Shown here piece after piece: positions 5,269-62,791 of a stretch of 64,000 bases of DNA. Every line of letters starts with the position of its first letter. The first letter of the stretch is position 1. Both the position numbers and the translations under genes were made by a program. A model generated the notes under the pieces. That model searched no databases, was not told the origin of the DNA, and worked only from the letters and a program-made list of their open reading frames with translations. Source of the stretch: Blastocatellia bacterium (GTDB lineage: Bacteria; Acidobacteriota; Blastocatellia; RBC074); contig JAEUQN010000004.1 of the NCBI GenBank assembly GCA_016789725.1, positions 99 through 64,098 on the forward strand, in the 5' to 3' direction.

Positions 5269-5309
5269 TTGCCCGTCGTTGTGAATACTACGTTTGCAAC
5301 GACGGGCAA
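5269..5309. terminator. hairpin between convergent genes (possible bidirectional terminator)
   Basis: 13-bp perfect stem ttgcccgtcgttg / caacgacgggcaa. The flanking U-tracts are weak. Confidence 0.5.
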
Positions 5310-5334
5310 AATATGTGACAGATTGGTTTGAGCC

Positions 5335-8075: not shown

Positions 8076-8136
8076 TGTCGGTCTCGCATTATCAAATTTT
8101 TGCAGCAACTTCCAGCAATTCTCAATTGGAAGAAAA

Positions 8137-8263
8137 GCTGGCAGAAAAAGGAGGGCAGGAAAACCGCTGGCGCGCAAGAAGCGCGCGGCCGGGAGCCGAT
8201 GGTCGCCGCGCCTCACGCCATGCAAGGCAGTCCGCTTTTGCTTGCCTTCTTTTTCCTGCCAGC
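8137..8263. repeat. 127-nt element bounded by 23-bp imperfect inverted repeats
   Basis: gctggcagaaaaaggagggcagg (8137-8159) versus the reverse complement of cttgccttctttttcctgccagc (8241-8263): 19/23 match. There is an inner GC hairpin cgcgcaagaagcgcg. Confidence 0.55.
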
Positions 8264-8423
8264 ATTCTGGCTCCTTCGTTTTGTTCTGCGAATTCAATGA
8301 TGCCTTAAATACTATCAGTCTTGGCGATCTTTCAAAATGGATTTACCGCGCGCATCAGAGAAACCGCGCTGATGCTGATGGTGGGAACTATGTTTGCCTG
8401 AGGCTGACGTGTGGATTGGCGTA

Positions 8424-45994: not shown

Positions 45995-46007
45995 GTGATG
46001 AGTCCTT

Positions 46008-46706: not shown

Positions 46707-46888
46707 ATTTCCTCCAGGTTCATGTTGTTCTTGTTCGATTGGTGGAAAGTGTAAAAGACAATGATTGCGGCGTCTTTCGACGGCTTGCTAATTTTTACGC
46801 GAGCTTGCGGTGATGTTTTGAGATGGTTCGACCAACGGGCAGGCGCAAGATTTGCCGGACACGCAATTGCCAACTGACCTAAAATCAA

Positions 46889-46929
46889 CACTCGCCAGAC
46901 GCGGCTCACAGGTCAGCATCTGGCGAGTG
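46889..46929 (-). terminator. terminator-like hairpin after the TonB-dependent receptor gene
   Basis: 11-bp stem cactcgccaga / tctggcgagtg, with T-rich tracts on both sides. Confidence 0.45.
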
Positions 46930-46978
46930 GTTGTTTTCGATAGCTTCAAAGCTAGTTGGCTATTCTTTCAAAATAAAA

Positions 46979-49900
46979 TCAGAAATATAACCGCGCCGCG
47001 AATTGCACCTGGCGCGGGTCTTCGGTAGTCGTAATCACGCCAAAATTCGCGCCGCCCAATGTGGTTCCGGGCGCTTGGAAATTCGCGCGATTGAGCAGAT
47101 TGAACGCCTCCGCACGAATTTGCAATTTCGTATGCTCCGTAAATTTGAAATCGCGCTGCAACGAAAAGTTCGCCGCCAGATAACTGGGGCTGCGCAAATC
47201 GGGCAACGTGCGCGGCGTGTTGCCAAAGCTGTAGGGTACAGGCTGCGCGAACGCCGTCGTATTAAAATATTGCTTGATGCGATCCGCTTTGGAACCGCTG
47301 CTGACAAGGTAGTTCCCTACGATATTAGGCCGCAAAGAATTGAACGCCAGCCCTTGCACCGAAGCGTTGGTCGCGCTGATTGAAAGCGGGAAGCCGCTCT
47401 GCGCCTGCACAATGGTGTTCACCGCAAATCCGCCAATGATTTTGCCGAGTACGCCTTCTTGCAGAAAACGTTGTTCGCGTCCGAACGGCAATTGCCACGT
47501 CACATCGCCAATGAAGCGATGGCGCACATCGAAATTCGAGAGTGATTTATCTGCGCGCCGGTTGTGATAATCCTGAAAATATTGCACCTGAATCGTCTGA
47601 TTGTTCAGCGACATCGAAGTCAGATCATCAATCAGCTTCGAGAACGAATACGCCGCGCTGAACGTCACGCTACTCGTCACACGCCGCGCGACGGTAAGTT
47701 GCAGCGAGTGATACGTCGAGTGCGATTCGTTCTGGCTGTAAGAAACGATATTGCCAAATTGCGGATATGGGCGCAGCAGTTGTGCCACGGTCACGGTCGA
47801 ACGCCCCAGAATCGAAGTCGAAGCCGGACGCTGATCCGTCGGCAAATTCAGAAACGGATTCGTCACGGTCAGATTGCCGAGCGGAACGCCGTTCACCACT
47901 TTGCTGGCCAGCGCAATCGCTTCGGGCGAAAGCTGATTGATGTCGGTTGCGCCGCTGAGCAAACCGATGCCCGCGTTTCCGGCGTATGCGACTTCCAGAT
48001 TGATTTTGCCAGGCAATTCGCGCTGCACATTCAGGTTCCATTGCGCGATGAACGGCTGACGAATGTTGCGCAAACGAACCGGAACCGATTGCCGTCCATA
48101 GCCGGTCAAGGGCCCCAAATAATCATTGGTTGGGGCGACGATGCCCGACGGAAAGGGGTTGCTGAGATTCGTTCCGGCAACTGGACTAATGCCATTGTTG
48201 AGCGAGGCGATGAACGGCGTTTCAGCCAAACCATCCATTGCGGCTGTGACGATATTGAATCCGCCACCACCAAGCGGTGCATACAAAATCGCACCGCCGG
48301 AGCGAATCACGGTTTTCTCATTCAGCTTGTATGCCAATCCCACACGCGGGCCGAAGTTGTTGTAATCGTGATCGTAGTTTTCGCGCGTCTTGACGCCGCC
48401 GCGCCCGACCGGAGTGACGACACCACGCAACGCAATCGCGCGCGTTCCCAACCCCGTTGCATCAGGAAAGGCGACTGAAACGTGGTTGATCGGAAACGCC
48501 GCTTGGTCATCAAAATTCAGCAGCCGATTGAAGCGTTCGGTGTTGCCCGTTTCAAATTCCCAGCGCAAGCCGAGATTCAGCGTCAATCGCTCATTCACCT
48601 TCCAATCATCCTGCACAAAAGCCGCGTAATACTTGCTTTGCAATGCGGGTTGCGGCGCAATTGCCAATCGTCCTGAAGCCGGATTGCCAAGCAACAACGC
48701 AGCAATCGCATCGCCTGTTTGCGGCGTGGTTTCGACCGGCACGCGCTGCGTAAAGTTGCGCGCGAAGGTGAAGTTGCCAGCCGGATCATCCGGGCGATAG
48801 TTGTACATCCGATAGATGCGTTCGTTCGCGCCAAACTTCAGCGCGTGATTGCCGCGCAACCAACTCACATCCTGATTCAAACTGTAGACATCCTGATTGT
48901 TGTTATAGAAGCCAAAATTGCGCGGCGGCCCCAATGATGTGTAACCCGCCGGATTCAGCGTCGGGAAAATGCCCGTGTCGTCCGAAGCGTTCTTCACATA
49001 CGCAGGCAAGCCCAAACTGGTCACATCAAAGCCGCGCGAAAAATGGATCGCGTCGTTATTGAAGCGCGTCATTCCGGCGTTCAGATGCAGCACGACTTTC
49101 GATGACAACGTGTTCACGTAATTGACAACATGCGTTCCTGGCACGGACGTTTGCTTTGGGTTCTGAATCGGCGAAGCAATGCTGGTCGGAAAGGGGCCGG
49201 AATTGTAGAGCGTGATCTGGTCTTTGATGATGCGCCAGAATATTTGCTGCGTCGAAGAAAGGTTGTAATCCACGCGCGCCGTAATCTGATAACTGTCGTT
49301 CGTCGCAATCGTATTGGCAATGTAGTTGTTGCTGAAGCCCAAGCCGTTCGCGTTGCGTACGCCCGCCGCATTCGGCAGCGGAAAATACGCGACCGCCGCA
49401 CGTCCCACTGGATTGATGAGCGCATCAGGAATGATGTTGTCCGCAAACGCCACGCGCGAACCTGCACCCGGTTGTCCGGCAGGAACGACTGTCCCCGGCA
49501 CATAAATCTGGCCGATGCGTGCGGGGATCAATTGGCCGCGCGTGTCTACAACTGTCGCACCCGGAATCGTTGCGCCGAGCAATTCAGAAAAATCGCCGCT
49601 GCGCATTTTCGCTGTGGGCACAGCCGAAGGAGTTTGTTTGGTTTGCGAAATCCGCAGCGCTTCGTAGTTGAAAAAGAAAAACAGCTTTTTGCTTTTGCCA
49701 ACGCCCGGCAGCCACACGGGGCCGCCGACATTGCCGCCGAACTGATTGAAGCGCAGTTTTTCCTTCACGCCGTTCGGATTCGCATTCACAAAAAAGCTGC
49801 GCGCGTCGAAGGCATCGTTACGGAGATATTCAAATAGCGTCGCGCGAAATTCAGTCGAGCCGGAACGGGTCGAGAAATTCAATGCGCCGCCGCCCGTGCG

Positions 49901-50605
49901 TCCGTATTCCGCTGGAAACGAATTCGTCACGATTTGAAATTCCTGCACGGCATCGGGCGAAGGCCGCAGCGAAATACGATTGTCGCCTTTGTTCGCCAGC
50001 GGAATGCCGTCTACAAAAGCTTCTGTGTTGAGCGTGCGTCCACCATTGATTGAAATTTCGCCCGATGCCGTCAAATCAGGGTTTGCGCCGCGTGAGCCGG
50101 GGGCAGAGGCCACGCCGATTTCCAGTTGTGCAAGCTGAAACACGTTGCGTCCGTTGAGCGGCAGGACTTCGACACGTTGCCGTCCGACGATGCCACCGAG
50201 CGCGCTGGTGGTCGTGTCGAGATTGACAGGTTCGGTGGCTGTGATGTTTACGGTTTCCGCTACGTCACCGGGCGCGAGTTGTAGATTGAATTCAGCGGTT
50301 TGCCCCACTTCTAAAATGACGTTTGGTTTGCGTGAAATTTTGAAGCCCTGCGCTTGTGCTTCGATGGCGTAAGTGCCGGGGACAAGAAACGTAAAACTGT
50401 AATGACCGCCTTCGTCCGTCACGAATGTTTTCTGCAAGCCAGTCGCTGCATTCGTGAGCGTTACGGTTGCGCCGGACAAAACTTGATCGTTGCCATCGCT
50501 GATGATGCCTTTGAGCGTGGCCGTAGCGGTTTGCGCTTGCGTCACCCAAGAGAAGGTCAGCACAGCGAAAATGAAGAGCAGAGAGCGAATCTTAGAGAGC
50601 AGCAT
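46979..50605 (-). CDS. TonB-dependent receptor with N-terminal CarboxypepD_reg-like domain
   Basis: Start moved to ATG 50605 (MLLSKIRSLLFIFAVLTFSWVTQAQTATA). TLKGIISDGNDQVLSGATVTLTN...GGHYSFTFLVPGTYAIEA is the carboxypeptidase-regulatory fold. A long barrel follows, ending in QFAARLYF. Confidence 0.9.
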   Translation of the reverse strand: MLLSKIRSLLFIFAVLTFSWVTQAQTATATLKGIISDGNDQVLSGATVTLTNAATGLQKTFVTDEGGHYSFTFLVPGTYAIEAQAQGFKISRKPNVILEVGQTAEFNLQLAPGDVAETVNITATEPVNLDTTTSALGGIVGRQRVEVLPLNGRNVFQLAQLEIGVASAPGSRGANPDLTASGEISINGGRTLNTEAFVDGIPLANKGDNRISLRPSPDAVQEFQIVTNSFPAEYGRTGGGALNFSTRSGSTEFRATLFEYLRNDAFDARSFFVNANPNGVKEKLRFNQFGGNVGGPVWLPGVGKSKKLFFFFNYEALRISQTKQTPSAVPTAKMRSGDFSELLGATIPGATVVDTRGQLIPARIGQIYVPGTVVPAGQPGAGSRVAFADNIIPDALINPVGRAAVAYFPLPNAAGVRNANGLGFSNNYIANTIATNDSYQITARVDYNLSSTQQIFWRIIKDQITLYNSGPFPTSIASPIQNPKQTSVPGTHVVNYVNTLSSKVVLHLNAGMTRFNNDAIHFSRGFDVTSLGLPAYVKNASDDTGIFPTLNPAGYTSLGPPRNFGFYNNNQDVYSLNQDVSWLRGNHALKFGANERIYRMYNYRPDDPAGNFTFARNFTQRVPVETTPQTGDAIAALLLGNPASGRLAIAPQPALQSKYYAAFVQDDWKVNERLTLNLGLRWEFETGNTERFNRLLNFDDQAAFPINHVSVAFPDATGLGTRAIALRGVVTPVGRGGVKTRENYDHDYNNFGPRVGLAYKLNEKTVIRSGGAILYAPLGGGGFNIVTAAMDGLAETPFIASLNNGISPVAGTNLSNPFPSGIVAPTNDYLGPLTGYGRQSVPVRLRNIRQPFIAQWNLNVQRELPGKINLEVAYAGNAGIGLLSGATDINQLSPEAIALASKVVNGVPLGNLTVTNPFLNLPTDQRPASTSILGRSTVTVAQLLRPYPQFGNIVSYSQNESHSTYHSLQLTVARRVTSSVTFSAAYSFSKLIDDLTSMSLNNQTIQVQYFQDYHNRRADKSLSNFDVRHRFIGDVTWQLPFGREQRFLQEGVLGKIIGGFAVNTIVQAQSGFPLSISATNASVQGLAFNSLRPNIVGNYLVSSGSKADRIKQYFNTTAFAQPVPYSFGNTPRTLPDLRSPSYLAANFSLQRDFKFTEHTKLQIRAEAFNLLNRANFQAPGTTLGGANFGVITTTEDPRQVQFAARLYF

Positions 50606-50615
50606 AACGGGTTCC

Positions 50616-51086
50616 TTATAAAGTTGAGGTCGTAAATGTTCGGGGTGAAAGTAAGAGTTCCGGGTTGGCGAGCGCCGCCAAGCGACGACGTGCCAGCCGC
50701 AATAATTCGTAGCCGCCGCAAGGCATCGCGCGATAAGCGGACAACACGCCTGCCAAGTCAGGCGCATTCGTGAGCCGCGTGATATCCACCAAAATCGAAA
50801 TGGCCTCGCAGTTCTGGCTGGCACGCAGTTGAGAAAGCACGGCGCGCAACGAATCAGGCGCGACATCCACAATAGCTAAATCGTGATCACACCAACACGC
50901 GCGATGATCTTCTGCAAATAGATGCACAACCGTGACGGCGATTTGATCCTGGCTGAGCGCGGCGTGTAAGTGCGATGCGCCCATGACGGAATCGGTAATG
51001 ATGATGACTCTTGGTCGTGTCGTTGTGGGCGCGAACGGTTGGTTCCACTGGTGAAATGCTTTTGTTGTTGGTACTGCTGTATTCAT
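50616..51086 (-). CDS. hypothetical protein, CheY-receiver-like topology with incomplete acidic pocket
   Basis: The pattern RVIIITDS ... HDLAIVDV ... ISILVDI mimics receiver beta1/beta3/beta4, but the DD pair and the conserved Lys are not evident. It ends 10 nt before the TonB-receptor start. Confidence 0.45.
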   Translation of the reverse strand: MNTAVPTTKAFHQWNQPFAPTTTRPRVIIITDSVMGASHLHAALSQDQIAVTVVHLFAEDHRACWCDHDLAIVDVAPDSLRAVLSQLRASQNCEAISILVDITRLTNAPDLAGVLSAYRAMPCGGYELLRLARRRLAALANPELLLSPRTFTTSTL

Positions 51087-51095
51087 AACACCTCT

Positions 51096-51138
51096 GAAAA
51101 AAGAAAACCCGTTATCGGTTGGGAAACCTGATAACGGG
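51096..51138 (-). terminator. Rho-independent terminator closing the cys/Tmk-like transcription unit
   Basis: Stem cccgttatc / gataacggg, followed on the minus strand by ttttcttttttc. Confidence 0.7.
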
Positions 51139-51298
51139 TCAGTCGCTTACAATCTTGCACAACGTTATTCCCTGCGATCAGGCTTGTGGTGGAGCGTCCA
51201 GAAACACATACAGCGTCCTGGACAACAACACAGACAGCTTGTCGGCGTCGGAAAAGAAAAAGCGTACAAGAGATTTTTTGTGATTCGTTTCATGACGA

Positions 51299-51967
51299 TT
51301 AGGCCGTTGCTTGTCGTGGCAACTTGATGAACTTGGGTGTTGCAGATTTTGGTGCGGGCTGACGCAACGGCTGCGAGAACCGTTGTACTTCAGTGCGCTC
51401 CAAAAGTTGATTGGTGCGATAAATGATTTGTCGCTCAATCAGCGCCGCACTTTGCTGCGCGGGAATCAGATAGACCGGCCAATCCGCTTGGGCGATCATT
51501 TCGAGCCAGCGCGCTTCTGTCTTCGCCAGGAATGATTCAGACTGAACCCAATCTCGAATCGCAGCAGGATTCGTGGCCGCTTCAAAGTTCAATGCGCCAT
51601 TCCAGCCATCGGCTAAATCCGATTCCAGGACAAACGACAAATCGGGTTTGATGCGGGTTCGCACCACTTTTTTTCCGCGCGCCAGCTTAGGAAAGGGAAC
51701 ATCGGGCAGTTGATTGTGCCAGGGGGGTTCGCTATCAAAAAATCCTTCGGCGAGAACAGTGCAGCCGCCCTTCAGAGCTGTATCAATGACCGATAAGTGT
51801 TCAGCATGAATCGTTCTGCGTTGCGGCCCGGCTTGCGGCCAAAGCGGTTCGCGTAAATCCAAGACAGTGCGTCCGGCATCAATGAGATATTGCGCCAGAC
51901 GGTGCAGATGTTGTGTCCGATTACTGCCCGCGATTCCTTCAATCGTAATGAGTTTTCCATTCCGCAT
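51299..51967 (-). CDS. thymidylate-kinase-like protein with degenerate P-loop
   Basis: AAGGAG lies before ATG 51967. GKLITIEGIAGSNRTQ...VLDLREP parallels Tmk G.fI..EG.DG.GKST...REPGGT, but with D>A, G>N and K>R. Confidence 0.6.
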   Translation of the reverse strand: MRNGKLITIEGIAGSNRTQHLHRLAQYLIDAGRTVLDLREPLWPQAGPQRRTIHAEHLSVIDTALKGGCTVLAEGFFDSEPPWHNQLPDVPFPKLARGKKVVRTRIKPDLSFVLESDLADGWNGALNFEAATNPAAIRDWVQSESFLAKTEARWLEMIAQADWPVYLIPAQQSAALIERQIIYRTNQLLERTEVQRFSQPLRQPAPKSATPKFIKLPRQATA

Positions 51968-52080
51968 AGCATTTTCTCCTTCGTTGATTGCGTGGGCGTT
52001 TCTGCCCGGAGTTGATTGCTTCTGCTTTCGTTTCCCAGCAAAACAGGAGCAAGGTTTGCCGCTGTGATTCCAGCGACATT

Positions 52081-52947
52081 TCATCCAATTCGTCGTGTGT
52101 GTTTTTTGTAGTATTCCATCGCCAGCAAAATGCTGAACGAGATCAGTGCCAGCACCAATGCCATCGCGTTCGCGCCCACTTCATTGCGATCATCCAGCGA
52201 GCGAAAAATGAATAACGTTGCGGTTTCGGTTAACCGACTGACGCTGCCGCTGACCACCAGCACTGCACCGAATTCGCCGAGCGCACGCGCGAACGTGAGC
52301 GTCACGCCATACAGCAAACCCCATTGAATATTGGGCAGCGTGATGTGCCAGAACGTTTGCCAATAGCTTGCGCCGAGTGTGTAGGCCGCGTGTTCCTGCT
52401 CTTCACCCAAATGAATCAGGACAGGAACGATTTCGCGCACTACGAAAGGCAGCGAAACAAAGATCGTCGCCAGCAACATCCCCGGCAACGCGAATACGAT
52501 TTTGAGATTCGCCGCTTCCAACCACGACGCAAACCAGCCGTTGCGACCAAACAACAAAATCAACATGAAGCCCGCAATCACAGGGGAAACCGCGAACGGC
52601 AAATCTACGATACTGTTTATGAAGGATTTTCCTTTGAACTTGTCGCGCGCCAGCACCCACGCGATGCACAAACCAAACAACGTATTGATGACCGTTGCCG
52701 CGACGGCCATCAACAGCGTCAACCACAAAGCATTTAAGGCCGCCGCCGAAGTCAGTTCGCGCCATAACGCGCCCGCCCCCGAAGCAAACGCGCCACCAAT
52801 GACAGCCACCAACGGGCCGCCCAATAAAAACGCGGCGTACAGCACAACGACAGCGATTAGCAACCACGCCAATTTGCCCGGACGCGCGCTGCGTGAATGC
52901 GGCATAAAATCCGTCGCCGCCGGAATGGTTGTTTCAAGCTGCGACAT
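52081..52947 (-). CDS. cysW: sulfate ABC transporter permease CysW
   Basis: Typical CysW sequence (FKGKSFINSIVDLPFAVSPVIAG, EEQEHAAYTLGAS). The start at 52947 overlaps the cysT end. Confidence 0.9.
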   Translation of the reverse strand: MSQLETTIPAATDFMPHSRSARPGKLAWLLIAVVVLYAAFLLGGPLVAVIGGAFASGAGALWRELTSAAALNALWLTLLMAVAATVINTLFGLCIAWVLARDKFKGKSFINSIVDLPFAVSPVIAGFMLILLFGRNGWFASWLEAANLKIVFALPGMLLATIFVSLPFVVREIVPVLIHLGEEQEHAAYTLGASYWQTFWHITLPNIQWGLLYGVTLTFARALGEFGAVLVVSGSVSRLTETATLFIFRSLDDRNEVGANAMALVLALISFSILLAMEYYKKHTRRIG

Positions 52948-53791
52948 GCGTGACTCCTTTGCGTCGTTGCAACCAATCCACAGCAAACATCAATGCGAAT
53001 GACAACACCAATAACAATAGCGAAACCGCGCTTGCGCCGTGCTGATTCTGCGATTCGATTTGCCCGAAGATGTACACCGGAGCCGTCAGCGTGCGTCCCG
53101 GAATATTGCCCGCGACAATCACAATTGAACCGAATTCACCGAGCGCCCGCGCAAAGCACAGCAGCGCGCCGGTCATCATCGCCGGACGAATCGCGGGAAG
53201 AATGATGTGCAAAAATGTTTTCCATTCCGACGCGCCGAGCGTCCACGCCGCTTCTTCTTCCGTGCGATCAATCTCCATCAGCACGGGCTGCACGGTGCGA
53301 ATCACGAACGGATACGTGACGAACAACAGCGCCATCACAATGCCCGGCGTCGCAAAAATCACTTGCACGCCGTGTGCTTCCAACCACGCGCCGAGTGTGC
53401 GTTGCGGCCCGTATAGAACAACCAGCATCACGCCCGCGACCAGTGTCGGAATCGCAAACGGCAAATCAATAATGCTATTCAGCAAACGCCGCCCAAAGAA
53501 TTCATAGCGCACCAGCACATACGCCGTCAGCGTTCCCATCAACGTATTGATGACCGTCATCGCAATCGCCGCTGTCAACGTGAGTTTGAGCGCCCCCCAC
53601 GCTAACGGATTCGTCACATCGTTGAGGAACGCGGCCAGTCCATTGCTGAATCCGTGTTGCAGCATCGCCGCTAGTGGAAGCAGCAAAATCAAACTTAGAT
53701 ACAACACGGCAATGGCGCGCAAACTCCATTTGCCCCACGGACAAACGGTCGCGGACTGCAAGGCTTTGAGATGTATTGCGGATGCGCTCAT
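52934..53791 (-). CDS. cysT: sulfate ABC transporter permease CysT
   Basis: FFGRRLLNSIIDLPFAIPTLVAG and EEAAWTLGASEW. 4-nt overlap with the sbp stop. Confidence 0.9.
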   Translation of the reverse strand: MSASAIHLKALQSATVCPWGKWSLRAIAVLYLSLILLLPLAAMLQHGFSNGLAAFLNDVTNPLAWGALKLTLTAAIAMTVINTLMGTLTAYVLVRYEFFGRRLLNSIIDLPFAIPTLVAGVMLVVLYGPQRTLGAWLEAHGVQVIFATPGIVMALLFVTYPFVIRTVQPVLMEIDRTEEEAAWTLGASEWKTFLHIILPAIRPAMMTGALLCFARALGEFGSIVIVAGNIPGRTLTAPVYIFGQIESQNQHGASAVSLLLLVLSFALMFAVDWLQRRKGVTHVAA

Positions 53792-54840
53792 TTTGCGTTG
53801 TAGAGTTCAGCAAAGACTTTCGTATACGCGCCTTGCGCGCCGTAAATATCGGCTTCGACTTTTTTCCACCCACCGAGGAAATCAATGTCCCATAAATCCT
53901 CGACAGGCGGATATTGCGCCTGCACTTCTTTGGCAATATCGGAATCAAGCGGGCGCAAGCCGTATTTCGCGTAAGCACGCTGTGCTTCTTTGCTGCTCAA
54001 AAATTGGATGAAGGCTTCGGCCACTTCGCGCACACCATGCTTGTCGGCATACTTGTCTATAAGTGCAACCGGGTTCTCAATCAGGATGGTCGAGCGCGGA
54101 ATCACGTAGTCATATTGTTGCCCAGCTTGTCGTCCGACCAGCACTTCGTTTTCGTATGTGATCGCTACATCGCCGACGCCTTTTTCAAAATTCGTGATGG
54201 ATTCGCGCCCGCCTTTGTCCAGAATTGTCACGTTGCGAAAGACATCTTTCAGAAAGCCCGCCGCCGCACTCACATCGCCTTTCGGCACACCTGCAAAGCC
54301 ACGTAGCGCTGCCCCGTACATCGCGTTTACATTCCATTGTGCGCCACCCGAAGTTTTTGGATCAGGCGTCAACACATTGACGCCCGCTTTGGTCAAATCC
54401 GTCCAGTCACGAATCTGTTTCGGATTGCCCGGCCTCACCGCTAACACCACAATCGAAGTGCTGACGATGCCGCGATTCCCATTGGCTTTCCAATCGTGCG
54501 TAATCAATCCGGCTTCGGCGATGTCGTCTATGTCGCCCTCCAGCGAAAGCGCGGCAATGTCGGCTTCAAAGCCGCTGGCAATCGCACGCGCTTGTGCGCC
54601 ACTGGCTTGATAGGATTCCTGAAACTCGACGTCCTGCCCGGTTTTCTCTTTCCAGTATTTTTGAAACGCAGGCAAAATCGCTTTGCCATACGCTTCGCGC
54701 GGCGTCGTGTACGCGCCCAGCACCAATGTCACCTTCTTGCTGTTCGCCGTCGTCGCATCACTCTGGCACGCGCTCAGGAATGAGAGGCTAAACAATAAGC
54801 ACAAACACAAAAAGATTCGGTTGTTCGGATGCAGTCGCAT
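53788..54840 (-). CDS. sbp: sulfate/thiosulfate ABC transporter substrate-binding protein
   Basis: Lipoprotein-like leader (LSFLSACQS). Sbp/CysP blocks YTTPREAY, SGAQARAI, NVLTPDPKTSGGAQWN. Confidence 0.9.
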   Translation of the reverse strand: MRLHPNNRIFLCLCLLFSLSFLSACQSDATTANSKKVTLVLGAYTTPREAYGKAILPAFQKYWKEKTGQDVEFQESYQASGAQARAIASGFEADIAALSLEGDIDDIAEAGLITHDWKANGNRGIVSTSIVVLAVRPGNPKQIRDWTDLTKAGVNVLTPDPKTSGGAQWNVNAMYGAALRGFAGVPKGDVSAAAGFLKDVFRNVTILDKGGRESITNFEKGVGDVAITYENEVLVGRQAGQQYDYVIPRSTILIENPVALIDKYADKHGVREVAEAFIQFLSSKEAQRAYAKYGLRPLDSDIAKEVQAQYPPVEDLWDIDFLGGWKKVEADIYGAQGAYTKVFAELYNAK

Positions 54841-54857
54841 TCGCTTCTCTTCTATTG

Positions 54858-54874
54858 CCTAGTAAATAACTAGG
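54858..54874. promoter_or_regulatory. 17-bp perfect palindrome upstream of sbp (candidate operator)
   Basis: CCTAGTAAATAACTAGG lies 18-34 nt upstream of the sbp ATG and directly downstream of the Rrf2 gene. Confidence 0.35.
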
Positions 54875-54931
54875 AGTTTGGGGCAAACAAAAACAAAAAC
54901 TACGTTCGAGAAAAAATTGTCTGGGGATGAT

Positions 54932-55384
54932 TTATTTACGTGAGGCTGTTTTTAGGTCAATCACCTTCGGGCGACTGACCGGCGTACATAAGTCCGCAAT
55001 GGTCGTTTGATCCAGCACGCCGAGCATTGCGGCGCGCGTGCGTGCCCACAGCGTTTTTAGTCCACAACCATCTTCAAATTCGCACGGTTCGTAATCCGAA
55101 GTGCTGACACAGCCCATCGGAGCGATACGACCGTCCAGAGTGCGAATGACTTCGCCCGCCGTGATTAAAGTTGCCGGACGCATCAGGCGATACCCGCCGC
55201 CGACGCCCACTTGACCGCTAATAATTCCGGCTTCTTTTAGGGTTTTCAGGATTTGCTCCAAGTATTTCACAGGAACGCTCCACTTCTCCGCGATTTCGCG
55301 GGCAGGCGTCGCTTCATGACTGTTTTTGCCAGCCAGGTAAATCAGCGCGCGCAACCCATATTCGCTTTTGGTGGAGACGTTCAT
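54932..55384 (-). CDS. Rrf2 family transcriptional regulator with three-Cys cluster motif (IscR/CymR-like)
   Basis: MNVSTKSEYGLRALIYLA winged helix, followed by C-x9-C-x5-C (GCVSTSDYEPCEFEDGCG). Confidence 0.9.
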   Translation of the reverse strand: MNVSTKSEYGLRALIYLAGKNSHEATPAREIAEKWSVPVKYLEQILKTLKEAGIISGQVGVGGGYRLMRPATLITAGEVIRTLDGRIAPMGCVSTSDYEPCEFEDGCGLKTLWARTRAAMLGVLDQTTIADLCTPVSRPKVIDLKTASRK

Positions 55385-55493
55385 ACCTAATTCCCATTAA
55401 GACAGTGGGAGTTTTACACCAAACAAAAATATGCGTCAACGGCTAACTCATCTTTTTTCGCGCACCCGTTACGTTTTACGAAACTGGTGTCCG

Positions 55494-56186
55494 TTAGACT
55501 TCCAGTTTTACGGTTGGTTTGGTGTTGGGAAAGATTTTTTCTACGGCGGCTTGCTTGGGCATTCCATACGCATTCACGGGCTGCGAACGATTGACCCACA
55601 ACGTGTAATACAGGTGATCGGCGCGCGGATCAGTGGTGTTCGGATGCAACAGAATGGTCAGGCCCAAACTATTAAGCTGTAACCACGGCACAATGATCGG
55701 CAACAGGTCGTTGGTGAAACCGAAATAGAACGATGGTGTGACGTGCGGGCCGCGCGGTTCCAGATTCCAATTGCCTAATTCCACGGGAAAGCGTTCAAGA
55801 GACCACTTGCGCACGAGCGCCGCTTTCTCGTAGCTATCTTCGTCGAAGTAAAAATGCGCGTGATAGCTCTTGATATCTGTGTAGGGGCGCGGTGCTTTGG
55901 GCAAGCCCGCCTCTTCGCCCGGTCGAATGTTTTTCGGACGCGGCGTCAGTTCCTTGATCGTTTCGTAACCCCACGGACTCTTGCCCACATCGGGCGGCGG
56001 CACAATTGGCTTGAACGATAAACCATTAGCGGCGGCATCTTGTGCTTCAGCTTCAATGTTGCCTGCTGTTAATCCGGCAGCAGTTAGTCCTGCACCAATG
56101 ATGAAGTTGCGACGTGTCGGCGCAAGCCAATCCGCCCACGCTTGATCCTCTTCTGTGTTTTGAATGATTCGTTCTTCGCTCGACAT
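55494..56186 (-). CDS. Tat-leader DOPA 4,5-dioxygenase family (DODA-like) protein
   Basis: Leader TRRNFIIGAGLTAAGLTAG. Core YHAHFYFDE...GPHVTPSF...VPWLQLNSLGLTILLHPNT...DH matches the DOPA_dioxygen family pattern (from memory). Confidence 0.7.
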   Translation of the reverse strand: MSSEERIIQNTEEDQAWADWLAPTRRNFIIGAGLTAAGLTAGNIEAEAQDAAANGLSFKPIVPPPDVGKSPWGYETIKELTPRPKNIRPGEEAGLPKAPRPYTDIKSYHAHFYFDEDSYEKAALVRKWSLERFPVELGNWNLEPRGPHVTPSFYFGFTNDLLPIIVPWLQLNSLGLTILLHPNTTDPRADHLYYTLWVNRSQPVNAYGMPKQAAVEKIFPNTKPTVKLEV

Positions 56187-56211
56187 AAATGCCTCCTCGT
56201 TTCGATGTTCA

Positions 56212-58215
56212 CTAAATCAATCCTGCACCGCGTCCGTTTTTGAGATTCCAGATCGCGGCGATCAGCGCATCAATTTCTTCGCAGGTGTTATAAAACGCGA
56301 GCGACGGACGGACGGTGCTTTCCACGCCGAAGCGCCGCAAAATCGGTTGCGCGCAATGATGACCGGTGCGCACAGCAATCCCCTCTTTGTTCAGCGCCTG
56401 TCCGACTTCATCGTTGGTAAAGCCGTCTAATACGAACGACAACACGCTCGCCTTTTCGCGCGCCGTGCCGATCAAACGCAAGCCGGGGATGCGCTGCAAT
56501 CCTTCGGTCGCATAGACCAGCAAATCGTGTTCGTAGCGTGCGATGTTTTCCATCCCGATGCGATCTACATAATCAATCGCTGCACCTAAACCGACCGCAT
56601 CGGCAATGCTGCCCGTACCAGCTTCAAAGCGGAACGGCGCAGGATGGTAGACCGTTTTCTCGAACGTCACATCCACGATCATATTGCCGCCGCCTTGCCA
56701 CGGAGGCGTCGCTTGCAGCACGTCTTCTTTGCCGTAGACTACGCCAATGCCCGTTGGCGCGAAAACCTTGTGACCAGAGAAAACATAAAAATCGCAGTCG
56801 TAAGCCTGCACGTCTACGCGCATGTGCGAAACAGCTTGCGCACCGTCCACCAGCACTTTTGCGCCGTAGCGATGCGCGATGGCGACCATTTCTGGCACGG
56901 GCGTGACCGTGCCAAGCGCGTTGGAGACTTGTGCAAAAGCCACAAGTTTTGTTTTTGGCCCCAGCAGTTTTTCGTATTCGTCGAGCAGAACCTGCCCGCT
57001 GTTGTCTACCGGAGCGACACGCAATCGTGCGCCTTTTTCGGCACACAACATTTGCCACGGCACGATGTTGGCGTGATGCTCCAAATGGCTCACGACAATC
57101 TCATCGCCTTCGTGGATGTTTTGTGCGCCCCAGCTTTTGGCGACGAGGTTAATCGCCTCTGTCGCCCCACGCACGAACACGATTTCGCGCGTCGAGCTGG
57201 CGTTTAGAAAGCGCCGCACTTTTTCGCGCGCTCCGTCATACGCATCGGTCGAGCGCGCCGCCAATTCGTGTGCGGCGCGATGCACGTTGGAATTTTCGTG
57301 TTCGTAAAAATACTTCAGACGATCAATCACTGCTTGCGGTTTTTGCGTCGTCGCCGCGTTGTCTAACCAAATCAACGGACGCCCGTTGACACGCTCCTGC
57401 AAAATCGGAAAGTCGCGCCGCACCGCATTCACATCGAACAATCCAACTGACAAGGCGGATTGCGGCGGCAAATTCGGATCGTTGCCAACTGGTTCCAGAA
57501 CAGGCGCAACTGCTGTGAGCGAACGCGCAGAATCCAAAAACGGAAACGACGTCGCATCGTAACCACGTGGCACAGGCGCACCCGGAATTTGCGGCGTAGC
57601 GACTGAAGCAACAGGCATCGTCGGAACCAATGTTGGCGCGTGTCCCGGCAACGTCGGCGCATATCCACGCACTTCGGTTTCGGTCGGCAGCTTGATGGCA
57701 GGCATCGCCACTTGCTCTGTCTGCTTCACCGTTTGCTCAAACAGAGAACGCGCTTCGCTCAAAAATCCAAACGAAGGCACATCCGAAAAATCTGCTGCCG
57801 ACGCGCCGCCGGGAATGCCGAGCGCGTTGGGTTCGGCCAACAGAAGCTGCGCCGGGGAAGTGGGAATCGTCGTGCCGCTGATGCCCGCCGCTTCAGCCGC
57901 CACTTTGTGCAACTCTGCTTCTGTGAGATGCGGCGGTGCAGAGATAGCAGACAGATGCGGCGCGACACCAAACGGAGAATAGGTCGCAGGCGGCGCAGCG
58001 CGTGTCGGCAGATTTGTCAGCGCGGCTTCTGGCGTTTGCGGAATGTTTGGCGCGGGCAATTCACTCGCAGCGCCCTGTTGCTGCAACCCCTGATAAATCT
58101 GATTGGCAAAGCGCGCCAAGACCGTTGGATCAGGCAAGCCAGCGGCCAAGGCTTGTGCTGCGCCAGACAAATCCGCCGCAATGTCTTCGGGCGTGAAATT
58201 AGTATTTGTACTCAT
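56212..58215 (-). CDS. cysteine desulfurase (SufS/CsdA-like class V PLP enzyme) with ~255-aa disordered N-terminal encapsulin-loading domain
   Basis: Start at ATG 58215 (MSTNTNF). The N-terminal part is Pro/Ala-rich and contains LARFANQIY. The C-terminal part has RDFPIL...IWLDNAATTQKP, SGHKVFAPTGIG (PLP Lys) and RTGHHCAQP (catalytic Cys). Confidence 0.9.
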   Translation of the reverse strand: MSTNTNFTPEDIAADLSGAAQALAAGLPDPTVLARFANQIYQGLQQQGAASELPAPNIPQTPEAALTNLPTRAAPPATYSPFGVAPHLSAISAPPHLTEAELHKVAAEAAGISGTTIPTSPAQLLLAEPNALGIPGGASAADFSDVPSFGFLSEARSLFEQTVKQTEQVAMPAIKLPTETEVRGYAPTLPGHAPTLVPTMPVASVATPQIPGAPVPRGYDATSFPFLDSARSLTAVAPVLEPVGNDPNLPPQSALSVGLFDVNAVRRDFPILQERVNGRPLIWLDNAATTQKPQAVIDRLKYFYEHENSNVHRAAHELAARSTDAYDGAREKVRRFLNASSTREIVFVRGATEAINLVAKSWGAQNIHEGDEIVVSHLEHHANIVPWQMLCAEKGARLRVAPVDNSGQVLLDEYEKLLGPKTKLVAFAQVSNALGTVTPVPEMVAIAHRYGAKVLVDGAQAVSHMRVDVQAYDCDFYVFSGHKVFAPTGIGVVYGKEDVLQATPPWQGGGNMIVDVTFEKTVYHPAPFRFEAGTGSIADAVGLGAAIDYVDRIGMENIARYEHDLLVYATEGLQRIPGLRLIGTAREKASVLSFVLDGFTNDEVGQALNKEGIAVRTGHHCAQPILRRFGVESTVRPSLAFYNTCEEIDALIAAIWNLKNGRGAGLI

Positions 58216-59146
58216 GATAGTTTCCGACTTCCACGTCATCGAGGGCAGCAATCGCATCGTCCGTCAGAATCGCGGCGGAGCAATACAACGACACCAGATA
58301 TGAACCAACTGCATTGTGATTCAGGCCCATAAATCGCACGGACAGTCCCGGCGTTTGTTCGCCCGGCAAGCCCGGTTGATACAGTCCGACAACACCTTGT
58401 TTTTGCTCGCCAACGCGCAACAACAAAATGCTAGTCTTGCCGCCTTCGCCCACAGCCGGAGCTGTTTTGCCGTCCACCATTAACTTATCAGTTGGAACTA
58501 AAGGAATGCCGCGCCACGTCAAAAATGATGAACCGAACAATGTTGCCGTCGGCGGAGGCACGCCGCGTCGTGTGCATTCGCGTCCGAACGCCGCAATCGC
58601 GCGCGGATGCGCCAGAAAGAACGATGGTTCTTTCCACACTTTAGAAATCAAATCATCCAGATCATCCGGCGTCGGCGGTCCTTTGCGCGTTTTGATGCGC
58701 TGTGCGGCAGGCACGTTTTTCAGCAAGCCGTAATCGTCGTTGTTAATGAGTTCGCTTTCCTGCCGTTCTTTGACAGTTTCGATGGTCAAGCGCAATTGCT
58801 CTTTGATTTGATCGTATGGATTGCTGTACAGGTCAGACGTGCGCGTGTGAACGTCCAGCAAGGCCGAGATGGAATTCAGCGTGTATTCACGCGGCTTTTC
58901 TTCATACGGCACATAAGTGTCGGGTAATGGCTGGGTTTCTTCCTGCCCGCAAACAACATCTACCGGATTATCGCTGACGACGCGATTGACGCGCAGCGTG
59001 CCTGCTTCGAGGGGTTTCCAATCCAGCAACCGCACCAGCCAGCGCGGCGTGATTGCGCCATACTGCGGCGGGGTTTTCGTGACATTGGCCAATTGATAGG
59101 CCGCTTGATCGCTGAGGGTGTGACGTACTTTATCGTTCTTAGCCAT
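58199..59146 (-). CDS. Family 2A encapsulin shell protein (HK97-fold, SrpI/MMP-I-like)
   Basis: 315 aa. Full-length block similarity (from memory) to Family 2A encapsulins: ITPRWLVRLLDWKPLEAGTLRVNRVV, PREYTLNSISALLDVHTRTSDLY, QLRLTIETVKERQESEL, PTPDDLDDLISKVWKEPSFFLAHPRAIAAFGRECTRRGVPPP, KQGVVGLYQPGLPGEQTPGLSVRFMG. No cNMP-binding insertion. Confidence 0.9.
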   Translation of the reverse strand: MAKNDKVRHTLSDQAAYQLANVTKTPPQYGAITPRWLVRLLDWKPLEAGTLRVNRVVSDNPVDVVCGQEETQPLPDTYVPYEEKPREYTLNSISALLDVHTRTSDLYSNPYDQIKEQLRLTIETVKERQESELINNDDYGLLKNVPAAQRIKTRKGPPTPDDLDDLISKVWKEPSFFLAHPRAIAAFGRECTRRGVPPPTATLFGSSFLTWRGIPLVPTDKLMVDGKTAPAVGEGGKTSILLLRVGEQKQGVVGLYQPGLPGEQTPGLSVRFMGLNHNAVGSYLVSLYCSAAILTDDAIAALDDVEVGNYHEYKY

Positions 59147-59159
59147 GATCTTTCCCTGG

Positions 59160-59173
59160 GAGAAATATTTCTC
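59160..59173. promoter_or_regulatory. 14-bp perfect palindrome just upstream of the encapsulin start (candidate operator)
   Basis: GAGAAATATTTCTC lies 14-27 nt upstream of ATG 59146. CTCGTAG is repeated at 59171 and 59221 (50 nt apart). Confidence 0.3.
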
Positions 59174-59293
59174 GTAGTTTGGTTATTTTCGCAGCAACGG
59201 ATGAACGTCTATTGCCCATACTCGTAGCTCATTTTTCGGCGTAAGTTCCACACAATGTCATAACTCTTGTCAAGGATCATCTCGAAAAACTCG

Positions 59294-60733
59294 TCAAAGT
59301 TTGCGCGAAGAAAAATGCCGTTGCGCTTGCGAACGATACTGATTCCACTGCGTAGGCAAGCCCGATTTAGTAGCCAGCAAAATTTCCAAAATAGCGCGGC
59401 GATCTTTGGGTGAAAGTTTGGCGTAGGCGGGAGATTGATCCTGTCCTGTTAAGACTTCCAGCAACCGACGATAGACATATTCTTTCGCGGGCGCGGGCAA
59501 GGCCTCGAACGCTTCAGAGTAAATCAGATAGCTGCACGGATATTTGAAGAGCCGCGTTTGCAAATCGAATTCGCGCAGCGAACGTCCGCGCTTGTCGTGC
59601 GGCCCGCGCGCGGCGAATTCCTCGGCAAACGACGTGCTGCCCTGAATGCGAGTGCCGAGCGGCGCTTCGTTTACAAAAAGCAGATACCGCACCAATTCTT
59701 CGGCAGGGGCTTCAAACTTGCGCCGCGCGGCTTCGGATATTTCGTGCGCGGGCAGCCCTGCCGCTTGGTTGCGAATGGCATCTTCGTGCAGCGCCAGACG
59801 GGTCTGATAGTTCGTGAGCGTAATCAGATTGTGCATCTGTGTCTGATGCGCCTGCACGAGTTGTGCCACGATGTCGCTGTGCGGCGTGAGATAGGGTGAG
59901 GTATCAAATCGTTTCGTCAGATCATTCAAGTTGGCCCCGGCGGCACGGTCAAGCTCTTCGGGATTTTCCTTATTGGTCACGACCACATTGCCCAGATGTG
60001 TTTGCTCGCCGTGTTTGCCCGTCACGTACCAGCCGCCAAAGCGTTCGCTCAAGGGGCTTTCGTTCCCGGTCACAAACGACGCGGCGCGCGTGGCCTGTGT
60101 GCCGGAAGGATTGGTGTAGACCGAACGCACAAACACACCGGGTACGCCGCGCGTGGCTGCCGCTACGTGGCATTGCGTGCAATCCAATTCGGCGCGCTCA
60201 AACGTGGGGCGTTCCAGCTTTTCAGTATCCGTTTCGTTGAGCTTTTGCTCGTCGAGAATATAAAAAATCGCGCCTTGTACCGGATCGAACGAAGCGATTT
60301 CCAAGACCTTGCCTTCTTTCACCCAACCGACATACACATCGTCATTGAAGTACAAGGCACGCGGCGTTTGAGGCGAAATTCTCTTGTACTGAAAACTCGT
60401 TTTGGAAAAGACGAGCGTTTGCGAATTGACGGGAATATTCAATTCCTTCAGGACGGATCTCAGATAGCCAGTTCCCGGCTCAAATTTCAGGCGCACTTCG
60501 CCCTTGTCAATGCGCTGTTGTAATTTCGCTACCGGATCATTGACCGGCGCAGTGCGATAGTTGATCGGCGCTTCGCTGAACGGCACGAAGCCCTGATTTC
60601 TAACCGCGATTTGTCCGTGCAACGGCAACGCCAACACGCCCAACACCAATGCACAGGCAACGATCAGCAGCTTGGTTGTTATGGTTTTAGAATTTGTTTG
60701 CATACGCATCTCCACAGTAAGTTGATGATTCAA
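59294..60733 (-). CDS. secreted hypothetical protein with a single CXXCH heme-c motif
   Basis: Signal/TM segment (LLIVACALVLGVLALPLHG). Contains ELDCTQCHVAAA. No family recognised. Alternative starts at 60709 and 60703. Confidence 0.65.
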   Translation of the reverse strand: MNHQLTVEMRMQTNSKTITTKLLIVACALVLGVLALPLHGQIAVRNQGFVPFSEAPINYRTAPVNDPVAKLQQRIDKGEVRLKFEPGTGYLRSVLKELNIPVNSQTLVFSKTSFQYKRISPQTPRALYFNDDVYVGWVKEGKVLEIASFDPVQGAIFYILDEQKLNETDTEKLERPTFERAELDCTQCHVAAATRGVPGVFVRSVYTNPSGTQATRAASFVTGNESPLSERFGGWYVTGKHGEQTHLGNVVVTNKENPEELDRAAGANLNDLTKRFDTSPYLTPHSDIVAQLVQAHQTQMHNLITLTNYQTRLALHEDAIRNQAAGLPAHEISEAARRKFEAPAEELVRYLLFVNEAPLGTRIQGSTSFAEEFAARGPHDKRGRSLREFDLQTRLFKYPCSYLIYSEAFEALPAPAKEYVYRRLLEVLTGQDQSPAYAKLSPKDRRAILEILLATKSGLPTQWNQYRSQAQRHFSSRKL

Positions 60734-60753
60734 AGCTCACCGCGTATCTGTTT

Positions 60754-61272
60754 TTATTGCGGATTTTGAATTTCGAGGGGTACTTCCAACTTCACCGCTT
60801 TAGGAGGCAGGCAAAGTCCCGTCGTACAGGCTTGATAACGCACTTGCACAATCAACGTTTGCTTTCCCGCGCTTGCATTGGCCTCGACGACAAACGGAAC
60901 GGTGAAGGTTGCAGCGTGTTCGTAATACTCCAAATCCGTATTGAAATTGTTGTCGAAGGCGCGCAACGGTTTGGGTGCGACAATCTCTCCAGCCAGCGCA
61001 AAAGCTTGTCCGGTCGCCGCACTAAAACGCGTAGGGCGCGGCCCAAGCTCAATTTCTTTAGTCGAATACAAGTGCCAGTTTTCTTCGATGGTGGCGACGA
61101 TTTGCACAGCAAACTTTTCACCAATCTTCAACGCACGCGCCGACAAGTCAGACTTGACAGCCCATTTGATCGGATCGAGTTTGCGCGAATCGCTTTGTCC
61201 CAAGACCGTCATTGTCAAGATAAGAAGCAACCCTGCGCCGTGTGTCAGGTGCAGAAAATATTTTTTCATCAT
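60754..61272 (-). CDS. secreted DsbD N-terminal (alpha) domain-like thiol-disulfide protein
   Basis: Signal peptide. WHLYS block and the C-terminal YQACTTGLCLPP cysteine pair are typical of the DsbD-N/DsbC-corrector domain. Confidence 0.7.
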   Translation of the reverse strand: MMKKYFLHLTHGAGLLLILTMTVLGQSDSRKLDPIKWAVKSDLSARALKIGEKFAVQIVATIEENWHLYSTKEIELGPRPTRFSAATGQAFALAGEIVAPKPLRAFDNNFNTDLEYYEHAATFTVPFVVEANASAGKQTLIVQVRYQACTTGLCLPPKAVKLEVPLEIQNPQ

Positions 61273-61299
61273 TGGTGTAATGAGTTTGATGGAATTCTC

Positions 61300-61390
61300 T
61301 TTTCACCACAGAGACACAGAGCGAACACAGAGGTACTCAGAGATTTACTCCGTGCAACTCTGTGCCTCCTCTGTGTCTCTATGGTGAAAA
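61300..61390. repeat. 91-nt palindromic 'cacagag' element (REP/MITE-like)
   Basis: ttttcaccacagagacacagagcgaacacagagg versus the reverse complement of ctctgtgcctcctctgtgtctctatggtgaaaa. It fills the TlpA-like / DsbD-N-like intergenic gap. Confidence 0.7.
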
Positions 61391-61399
61391 AAATCATCG

Positions 61400-62695: not shown

Positions 62696-62791
62696 ACGGT
62701 TTGTTCCTTTCGTAAAAGTTATGGGTGATTGGTTTTCAGTGTTTACTCGAATCGCAATTGATCCGAATGTGTCTGTGCATAAAGCATTGCC

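Follow-up and report, generated by a model that had tools for sequence, protein, structure and literature searches.

We analysed 64,000 nucleotides of a Blastocatellia genome (contig JAEUQN010000004.1; hereafter the window), in which eight co-directional genes on the minus strand, at 51299-59146, join an encapsulin and its cargo to genes for sulfate import. Our best explanation, which we consider probable, is that this locus is a mosaic built on a sulfate-import operon: two modules would have been inserted into the operon, the gene for the transporter's ATPase (cysA) would have been displaced, an Rrf2-family regulator would control sulfate uptake, and the encapsulin would serve in sulfur storage. 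The presumed ground state, which is typical of the lineage, is cysA-rrf2-sbp-cysT-cysW-terminator-OMP, where OMP is an outer-membrane protein. Comparison with related loci suggests that enc-CyD-DODA (the shell protein, its cargo cysteine desulfurase, and a DOPA-4,5-dioxygenase-family protein) brought its own promoter-like box when it entered between cysA and rrf2, in a narrow clade of Blastocatellia. A second module, p128 and a thymidylate-kinase-like (Tmk-like) gene, would have entered between cysW and the terminator, with p128 later deleted in the window. The cysA/rrf2 junction would have been rearranged again, so that cysA would now lie either upstream, by more than 4.9 kb, or downstream, by more than 51 kb, and the transporter would still depend on CysA.

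We identified genes with curated profile models (Pfam and TIGRFAM/NCBIfam), and we compared bit scores to the models' cutoffs. All of the genes of the locus, and the signals described with them, are on the minus strand. In the direction of transcription, the first gene is enc (58199-59146), which encodes a SrpI-like Family 2A encapsulin shell protein of 315 amino acids (aa), without a cyclic-nucleotide (cNMP)-binding insertion (NF041162, 513 bits vs. a cutoff of 380; PF19307, 346 bits). It is followed by CyD (56212-58215, 667 aa), the encapsulin cargo cysteine desulfurase (NF041166, 899.5 bits vs. 800; TIGR01979, 565 bits), and by DODA (55494-56186), which has a twin-arginine leader and matches PF08883 (76.7 bits vs. 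25). Next come the Rrf2-family regulator (54932-55384; PF02082, 126 bits; TIGR00738, 123.6 bits vs. 73.3), the sulfate-binding lipoprotein Sbp with its lipobox LSAC (53788-54840; TIGR00971, 234 bits vs. 155.5; PF13531), and two permeases of the sulfate ATP-binding cassette (ABC) transporter, CysT (52934-53791; TIGR02139, 285 bits vs. 246.1) and CysW (52081-52947; TIGR00969, 312 bits vs. 240; TIGR02140, 296 bits, which is under the cutoff of 329). The last gene (51299-51967) is a variable accessory gene for a thymidylate-kinase-derived protein of 222 aa, with a sub-threshold match to dTMP kinase.

Two start codons were placed by homology. The open reading frame (ORF) for CyD spans 56212-58257, and homologs place its start at 58215. 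The Tmk-like ORF spans 51299-52084, with an ATGA-overlapping start, but homologs place the start at 51967, because all seven of them are 217-230 aa. With these starts, the intergenic distances from enc to the Tmk-like gene are -17, 25, 109, 91, -4, -14 and 113 nt: CyD overlaps enc by 17 nt, DODA begins 25 nt after CyD, cysT overlaps sbp by 4 nt, and cysW overlaps cysT by 14 nt. The transporter unit is closed by an intrinsic terminator (51096-51138), a hairpin of -20.7 kcal/mol (z = -3.4; none of 200 shuffled sequences was as stable) followed by a U-run, UUUUCUUUUUU. A consensus scanner missed this terminator because its loop is longer than 8 nt. An earlier, sequence-only reading of the window had proposed the eight genes with these identities, positions and order, with gaps of 25-113 nt or overlaps and a strong terminator at the end, and on all of these points it is borne out.

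Much of the evidence for a mosaic comes from related loci (labelled L001 and so on), which we found from contigs with Tmk-like homologs, from a DODA-anchored scan of genomes, from an enc-anchored scan of metagenomes, and by looking up homologs of CysA. The ground state is seen in L169, which has cysA-rrf2-sbp-cysT-cysW-hairpin-OMP, with neither the encapsulin module nor the Tmk-like gene; its proteins are 94% (Rrf2), 89% (Sbp), 93% (CysT) and 94% (CysW) identical to those of the window. L167, whose cysA is 71% identical, has cysA-rrf2-sbp-cysT-cysW-tRNA-Cys-OMP. In L168, cysA adjoins rrf2 as well, while L170 (cysA 62% identical) has cysA-rrf2-OMP without sbp-cysTW.

Other relatives carry one or both of the putative insertions. 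L004 has cysA-enc-CyD-DODA-rrf2-sbp-cysT-cysW-OMP, with cysA 369 nt upstream of enc. L001 and L084 are parts of one contig, which has cysA-DUF1684-2x tRNA-Cys-OMP-DsbD_N-unk477-AhpC-enc-CyD-DODA-rrf2-sbp-cysT-cysW-TmkL-tRNA-Cys-OMP (TmkL is the Tmk-like gene). Here cysA and enc share a strand, with cysA 11.4 kb upstream. L002 lacks enc and has cysA-DUF1684-transposase-tRNA-Cys-DODA-ChrA-rrf2-sbp-cysT-cysW-p128-TmkL-orf154-OMP. Finally, L003, L165 and the window share the order enc-CyD-DODA-rrf2-sbp-cysT-cysW-(p128)-TmkL-(orf156)-OMP, preceded by a variable flank; in L165, which is the closest relative, genes for an amylase and a transglutaminase are upstream of enc. L001, L004 and L169 have hairpins equivalent to the terminator, located after cysW or the Tmk-like gene. 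The order of the locus recurs in L001, L003, L004 and L165, and where we measured synonymous divergence (L001, L003 and L004), dS is about 0.5-1 or more, so the arrangement is more than chance. The linkage of the encapsulin to sulfate-import genes and a three-cysteine Rrf2 regulator, which had been proposed from the window, is found in the same order in these relatives.

The sequence-only reading had also stated that no ABC ATPase is encoded in the window. This is correct: the motif G..G.GK[ST] does not occur in any of the six frames of the 64 kb, and a tblastn search of the window with the lineage's own CysA gave a best E-value of 0.36. It had gone on to suggest that the missing ATPase was replaced by the pseudo-kinase-like gene. 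In its full form, this idea is that the eight genes are a single sulfur-starvation operon that lost its ABC ATPase, with the Tmk-like protein standing in functionally or taking a regulatory place. The genes do all point the same way, are closely spaced or overlap, and end in one strong terminator; there is no ATPase in 64 kb; and the Tmk-like gene is under purifying selection. We nevertheless find this account hardly credible. Both cysA and the Tmk-like gene are present in L001 and L002, and L004 and L169 have the same transporter but no Tmk-like gene. The Tmk-like protein lacks the Walker-A lysine and an ABC signature. Furthermore, the coupling (EAA) loops of the permeases, which dock an ABC nucleotide-binding domain, are kept, and conserved promoter-like and operator elements (described below) lie inside the supposed operon. 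As shown by L167, L168 and L169, cysA is normally directly upstream of rrf2.

We conclude that cysA should be elsewhere in this genome, displaced rather than lost, because cysA is present in the relatives, the Tmk-like protein is unfit for the role, and the permeases have kept their EAA loops and are under purifying selection. The loops, as read from the sequences, are EEAAWTLG-x9-IILP in CysT and HAAYTLG-x9-ITLP in CysW, and the ratio of nonsynonymous to synonymous rates (dN/dS) is about 0.05 for both. The CysA orthologs of L002 and L004 are 93% identical to each other. L009 has a complete sbp/cysT/ATPase set, and a full-length comparison of its ATPase with the lineage's CysA gives 49% identity. 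The lineage's CysA scores 293 bits against the sulfate ATPase model TIGR00968, under the cutoff of 343. From these similarities, the lineage's ATPase is of the cognate (CysA-class) type. We tried to place cysA by synteny with L001 and rejected this: where L001 has an OMP between cysA and enc, the partial OMP at the end of the window (62792-63976) shares just 29% identity with it, and the flank of L165 differs again.

Compared to known importers of the Sbp-CysTWA and CysPTWA types (E. coli CysPTWA, Synechococcus, and SubI-CysTWA of Mycobacterium), the proteins are conventional: the sulfate-specific TIGRFAM models recognise Sbp, CysT and CysW, and neither permease has lost its EAA coupling loop. 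The differences are in the arrangement. The order in this lineage is cysA, then the regulator, then sbp-cysT-cysW. This places cysA upstream of the promoter-like box and candidate operator of rrf2, where it is easily separated, and in our case it is not within the 64-kb window. Also, a large OMP with CarboxypepD_reg and OMP_b-brl_4 domains always follows in this lineage.

What does the Tmk-like gene do? Most likely, it encodes a dispensable accessory protein that is either non-catalytic or a re-purposed nucleotide-binding protein. Among 5.8 billion proteins there are only 7 clusters of homologs, and an exact-sequence look-up found no record of the window's protein. Compared to thymidylate kinase, the P-loop, the "REP" segment and the "PDL" lid region can be aligned, but the P-loop is degenerate (GIAGSNRT), with an arginine (Arg17) that is invariant in the family in place of the Walker-A lysine, and EGFF replaces DRY. 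Thus neither Walker A (GxxGxGK[ST]) nor the DR[YFH] motif is present. The protein scores 25 bits against TIGR00041 (cutoff 83) and has no Pfam match; its profile matches in the PDB are to thymidylate kinases only (E = 1e-8). An AlphaFold2 model from an alignment of 8 sequences has a confidence (pLDDT) of 50, and its top Foldseek matches are to Thermus Tmk at a TM-score of about 0.45, which is weak and tells little more than the sequence profile does. With a dN/dS of 0.11-0.18, the gene is real, and it changes much faster than its neighbours: the proteins are 46-87% identical, compared to 85-99% for the neighbours.

The companion of the Tmk-like gene, p128, is a 128-aa gene without a Pfam match, found in L002, L003 (9482-9868) and L166 (1755-2141), where it separates cysW from the Tmk-like gene. 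CysW ends in ...KKHTRRIG* in the window and in L165, vs. ...KKHARRPL* in L003 and L166, and p128 ends in ...LIG*. By this comparison, positions 52081-52095 (minus strand) are the scar of a deletion of p128, with its last two codons fused to cysW in the window and in L165. Before the Tmk-like gene, at 51968-52080 (minus strand), there is an element of about 45 nt, TTGCTCCTGTTTTGCTGGGAAA..AAGCAGAAGCAA, followed by AACTCCGGGC, which could form an imperfect hairpin. Across the window, L165, L166, L003, L002 and L001, this element is better conserved than the Tmk-like protein.

We now consider regulation. In the Rrf2 protein, a winged-helix Rrf2 domain is combined with a cluster of three cysteines in the ligand region, as in IscR, NsrR and RirA; CymR shares the domain. 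The cysteines are Cys92, Cys101 and Cys107 (C-X8-C-X5-C), there is also Cys133, and the triad is conserved in five orthologs, including those of L001-L004. The protein is under the cutoff of every named equivalog model: the best is CymR (91 bits vs. 195), followed by IscR (68 vs. 208) and NsrR (68 vs. 182). CymR itself is not known to have cluster cysteines. Another difference from the iron-sulfur (Fe-S) regulators of this family is that the putative target is a sulfate transporter, rather than Fe-S assembly or detoxification of nitric oxide.

Two candidate operators for Rrf2 were found. Before rrf2 (55390-55439, minus strand), a promoter-like box, TTGACG (55439-55434)-N17-TAAAAC (55416-55411), is overlapped by a palindrome, AACTCCCACTGTCTTAATGGGAAT (55413-55390). 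The second palindrome, AACTCCTAGTTATTTACTAGGCAAT (54854-54878, minus strand), is 13 nt before the start codon of sbp. Their common form is AACTCCyAs-N7/8-sTrGGmAAT, and this motif occurs only twice in the 64 kb, at these two sites. The rrf2 box and its palindrome are conserved in L001-L004 and L165, and before rrf2 in L167, L168, L169 and L170, whose cysA genes are 62-88% identical. For the second palindrome, the arms CTCCTAG and CTAGGCAAT are invariant in L001-L004, L165 and L169, and the spacer varies. Both palindromes fit the skeleton of the IscR type-2 box, A-N3-CC-N13-GG-N3-T (PMC4169559). Taken by itself, the skeleton is found 20 times in the window, and we treat the resemblance as a lead only. 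We did not use a likeness of operator 1 to the CymR box of B. subtilis, in which the spacing is off by 2 nt, and we rejected a third box-like site at 20096 (minus strand), which has a 10-nt spacer and a GFO/IDH/MocA oxidoreductase downstream, with no link to sulfur. In two other genomes, an extra copy of the rrf2-type operator is right after cysA and before DUF1684 (L084 at 11366, L002 at 1103); because the duplicate sits before the DUF1684 gene, that gene may belong to the rrf2 regulon in those genomes.

The palindromes might instead act as RNA, as hairpins in the 5' leaders that control translation or stability of the rrf2 and sbp transcripts. Both are less than 40 nt from start codons, on the transcribed strand, and among the arm variants (TCCCA/TGGGA, TCCCA/TAGGA and TCCTA/TAGGA), one pair is compensated. 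We consider this very unlikely. The flanks outside the arms (AAC... and ...AAT) are also invariant, site 1 overlaps the -10-like box, as in autoregulated repressors, and neither palindrome matches an Rfam family. The fit to the IscR skeleton is another point for operators, with the caveat about its frequency. A broader Rfam scan of 46000-64000 for riboswitches and small RNAs found nothing credible. A long, near-perfect hairpin at 61287-61405, between the AhpC/TSA-like and DsbD_N genes, gave only sub-threshold matches to miRNA families.

The sequence-only reading had treated the eight genes as one block, with the regulator as an oddity inside it. With a conserved promoter-like box and palindrome before rrf2 and the second palindrome before sbp, the locus appears to have at least three transcription units. 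A single operon is unlikely, although there could still be read-through between the units. Rrf2 is a standing member of the acidobacterial sulfate operon, and the encapsulin module would be the newcomer. In sum, the identities and the physical linkage in that reading hold up, while the replacement of the ATPase, the single unit, and the odd regulator do not. We also note that a scanner for the sigma-70 consensus found no sites in 50400-61500, vs. 7.1 +/- 2.6 in shuffled sequences. In the conserved promoter-like boxes of this locus, the -35 (TTGACr) is good but the second hexamer (TAAAAC or nnGAAC) is atypical.

By its profile scores and layout, enc-CyD falls squarely within the Family 2A cysteine desulfurase (CD) encapsulins, such as SrpI/CyD of Synechococcus elongatus PCC 7942 and the system of Acinetobacter baumannii. 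Shell and cargo are both above the NCBIfam cutoffs, the shell gene directly precedes the cargo gene and overlaps it, and CyD has an N-terminal loading domain of about 270 aa, predicted to be disordered as in the known systems, followed by a SufS-like domain. The published cargo motifs are LARLANEFFS and AASPYYFLDG (Nichols 2021), and both have counterparts in the N-terminal domain here (LARFANQIYQ, and SFGFLSEA / SFPFLDSA). The shell protein of the window is 92-98% identical to those of L001, L003, L004 and L165, with dN/dS of 0.015-0.045. In published work, sulfur limitation induces Family 2A CD systems, and these hold elemental sulfur (PMC8049743, PMC10836720): deposition of sulfur in the shell was shown for Acinetobacter, and both Synechococcus and Acinetobacter induce the module when sulfur is limiting (PMC10836720, PMC8049743). 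Four types of Family 2A CD operons have been published, and in three of the four, a rhodanese and/or a serine O-acetyltransferase is added. Neither of these families is among the genes that we scanned (46979-63976), so the locus corresponds to the published type with just the two-gene core. In place of those additions, the cargo gene is followed by the twin-arginine PF08883 gene, and the module lies within a sulfate ABC operon with an Rrf2 gene. The host differs as well: Acidobacteriota are not treated in the Family 2A literature that we examined.

The encapsulin module has its own promoter-like box (59245-59273, minus strand), with TTGACA (59273-59268), a 17-nt spacer, and TGGAAC (59250-59245). 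The sigma-70 scanner does not call it. As TTGACA-N17-nnGAAC, the box is kept in the window, L165, L003, L001, L005 and L054; in L012, TTGACA is kept and the second box is a variant. The leader that follows (about 100 nt, 59147-59245, minus strand) is conserved in the window, L165, L003 and L001, with the hairpin GCAATG..CATTGC, and does not match any Rfam family. We considered TAGGCAAT in this leader as a distant half-site for Rrf2, but it is better explained as an arm of that hairpin.

How widespread is the arrangement? For a distant comparison, we used 80 enc loci at 71-84% identity. Wherever the contig allows, enc and CyD are always paired. The transporter is absent from 79 of the 80: DODA is found in one locus and a sulfate-type transporter in one. 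Because of this, the full block appears to be specific to, and in our comparisons is confined to, a narrow clade of Blastocatellia. As for the conservation of synteny, on which the earlier interpretation was to be judged, the block is conserved in a small clade and is missing from nearly all of the distant loci. In the supplementary table of a published survey, genes for ABC permeases are near 38% and genes for ABC ATPases near 30% of Family 2A shell genes, so linkage to a transporter, as such, was known before. The table has no entry for Rrf2, PF08883 or the Tmk-like gene. Our literature search found no paper that links Rrf2 to cysA, cysW or sbp, or encapsulins to Acidobacteria. The locus places a known Family 2A encapsulin in a new operon context. 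The gene combination, which the sequence-only reading did not know to have been described, is not among the published operon types.

These distributions also bear on whether the encapsulin and the transporter are related in function. It could be that the cysA/rrf2 junction is a hotspot for rearrangement, and that enc-CyD-DODA is adjacent to the transporter by chance and functionally independent of it. Besides the 79 enc loci without the transporter, this would explain why there is other cargo at the junction (the transposase, tRNA-Cys and ChrA in L002; DUF1684, OMP and AhpC/DsbD_N in L001), why the upstream flank of enc differs among L165, L004 and the window, and why enc has no Rrf2 operator. 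However, the inserted genes are themselves sulfur-related, the order is kept despite substantial synonymous divergence, and ABC transporter genes are common near Family 2A shells in the published survey described above. Also, an independent grouping of enc-CyD with Rrf2 and DODA is found in Occallatibacter savannae (L042), as DODA-CDO/rhodanese fusion-PIG-L-enc-CyD-YeiH-like-Rrf2, that is, with a YeiH-like transporter and a CDO/rhodanese fusion. Overall, we judge neutral adjacency to be unlikely, though it is a serious alternative.

The third gene of the inserted module, DODA, recurs beside encapsulins, also in distant Acidobacteria. It adjoins enc-CyD in L005, L012 and L054 (Blastocatellia, with varied arrangements) and in L042, L045 and L101, and in L002 it is coupled to a transporter of chromate or sulfate analogues (ChrA). 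These contexts support a sulfur-related periplasmic role, with no specific chemistry, and the sulfur genes argue against betalain-type chemistry. From its twin-arginine motif, TRRNFIIGAG (T-R-R-N-F-I-I), the protein is probably exported by the twin-arginine translocation (Tat) system and periplasmic. About 24 residues ahead of the twin arginines are conserved as well (DQxWADxLxPxRR). The conservation of the protein is unusual: our alignment (A2) has 106 invariant columns, and identity does not fall below 61% across Acidobacteriota, Planctomycetota, Sphingomonas, Stenotrophomonas, Brevundimonas and Massilia. The only relatives in the PDB are 2peb and 2nyh, both described as "putative dioxygenase," and no bacterial member of PF08883 with a known substrate turned up. 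A general neighbour of DODA across phyla was sought and not found; the clusters in Stenotrophomonas and Sphingomonas are lineage-specific synteny.

Other genes were seen near DODA. Upstream of enc, at 59294-62695 (minus strand), are three genes for exported proteins: a 431-aa AhpC/TSA-redoxin, a protein with a DsbD_N domain, and a 479-aa protein without a Pfam match. Homologs of this trio are beside DODA in Granulicella (L047) and Silvibacterium (L051), and partly in L012, L043 and L054. In other Blastocatellia (L009 at 5222-9073, L015, L030 and L054), a second, compact sulfate-type ABC set lies 1.4-4 kb downstream of DODA; it comprises an Sbp-like protein, just one permease, which is CysT-like, and a CysA-like ATPase.

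If the mosaic explanation is correct, the locus might work as follows. Rrf2 with an Fe-S cluster on its three cysteines would bind both palindromes and repress rrf2 and sbp-cysTW. Scarcity of cysteine or sulfur, or oxidative stress, would lead to loss of the cluster and release of Rrf2 from the DNA. The imported sulfate would be assimilated to cysteine, from which the encapsulated desulfurase would produce elemental sulfur protected by the shell, as in published work on Family 2A. Adjacency would favour co-inheritance, and perhaps co-expression, of uptake and storage.

Several points weigh against this explanation. The cysA of this genome was not located, and from the window alone, its loss or the use of an unrelated, shared ATPase would also be possible. 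The direction of events comes from parsimony across about ten loci, mostly metagenomic contigs, so that insertion and displacement are the likely rather than the certain order. The palindromes could act as RNA hairpins instead of DNA operators: in L002, a change in one arm is compensated on the other arm, which fits either role. The spacing of the cysteines differs from that of IscR, and binding of a Fe-S cluster is putative. Our motif search of the 64-kb window found no Rrf2-type operator before enc, so the enc module may not be co-regulated with the transporter. And functional coupling between the encapsulin and the transporter may be weak, because their adjacency is limited to a small clade.

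Downstream of the terminator, the main constant is the OMP (46979-50602, minus strand, 1207 aa; PF25183, 730 bits), which is beyond the eight-gene interval. It follows the transporter in L001-L004, L165, L167 and L169, and it directly follows cysA-rrf2 in L170, with 76-93% identity overall (76-77% for L170). The system may have in this OMP a functional partner in the outer membrane. An ORF of 156 aa (50616-51086, minus strand) separates the terminator from the OMP; it is also found in L165 and L166 (85% identity for both) and in L002 (62%) and is absent from L001, L003 and L004. Its sole similarity is a weak one, to the receiver domain of response regulators (PleD, E = 0.002). Genes for tRNA-Cys(GCA) are another feature of these loci, with five copies in four of them (L001 10939-11012; L084 12921-12993 and 13138-13212; L002 3599-3672; L167 13090-13164), usually just before the OMP; three are within about 25 kb of one genome. 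There are none in the window.

Family 2A encapsulins are a recently characterised organelle for storing sulfur, and how they are regulated and linked to uptake is a question for the field. The lack of cysA, which first drew attention to this locus, most likely reflects rearrangement at an insertion-prone junction and the limits of the window; a gene that is "missing" from a fixed window may lie outside it. Fresher leads are the sulfate operon with its rrf2 gene, the series of relatives with and without the encapsulin, and the link to PF08883. Related genomes that have the same rrf2-containing operon, with or without the encapsulin module, are a natural comparison set, which lets one ask what the compartment contributes. 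In a phylum where little work has been done on gene regulation, the candidate Rrf2 and its two putative sites offer a concrete way to approach sulfate uptake. And the twin-arginine PF08883 protein is a recurrent new neighbour, at least 61% identical from Acidobacteria to Stenotrophomonas. More speculatively, in Blastocatellia and related Acidobacteriota, a Fe-S Rrf2 sensor might control sulfate import in the manner of IscR, and some of these bacteria might have recruited an encapsulin along with DODA, as a periplasmic partner; we offer this broader idea tentatively. If it is true, then PF08883 would be a previously unrecognised periplasmic partner of encapsulin-based sulfur metabolism, and a feedback loop for sulfur status, analogous to that of IscR, would be built into the operon for the transporter.

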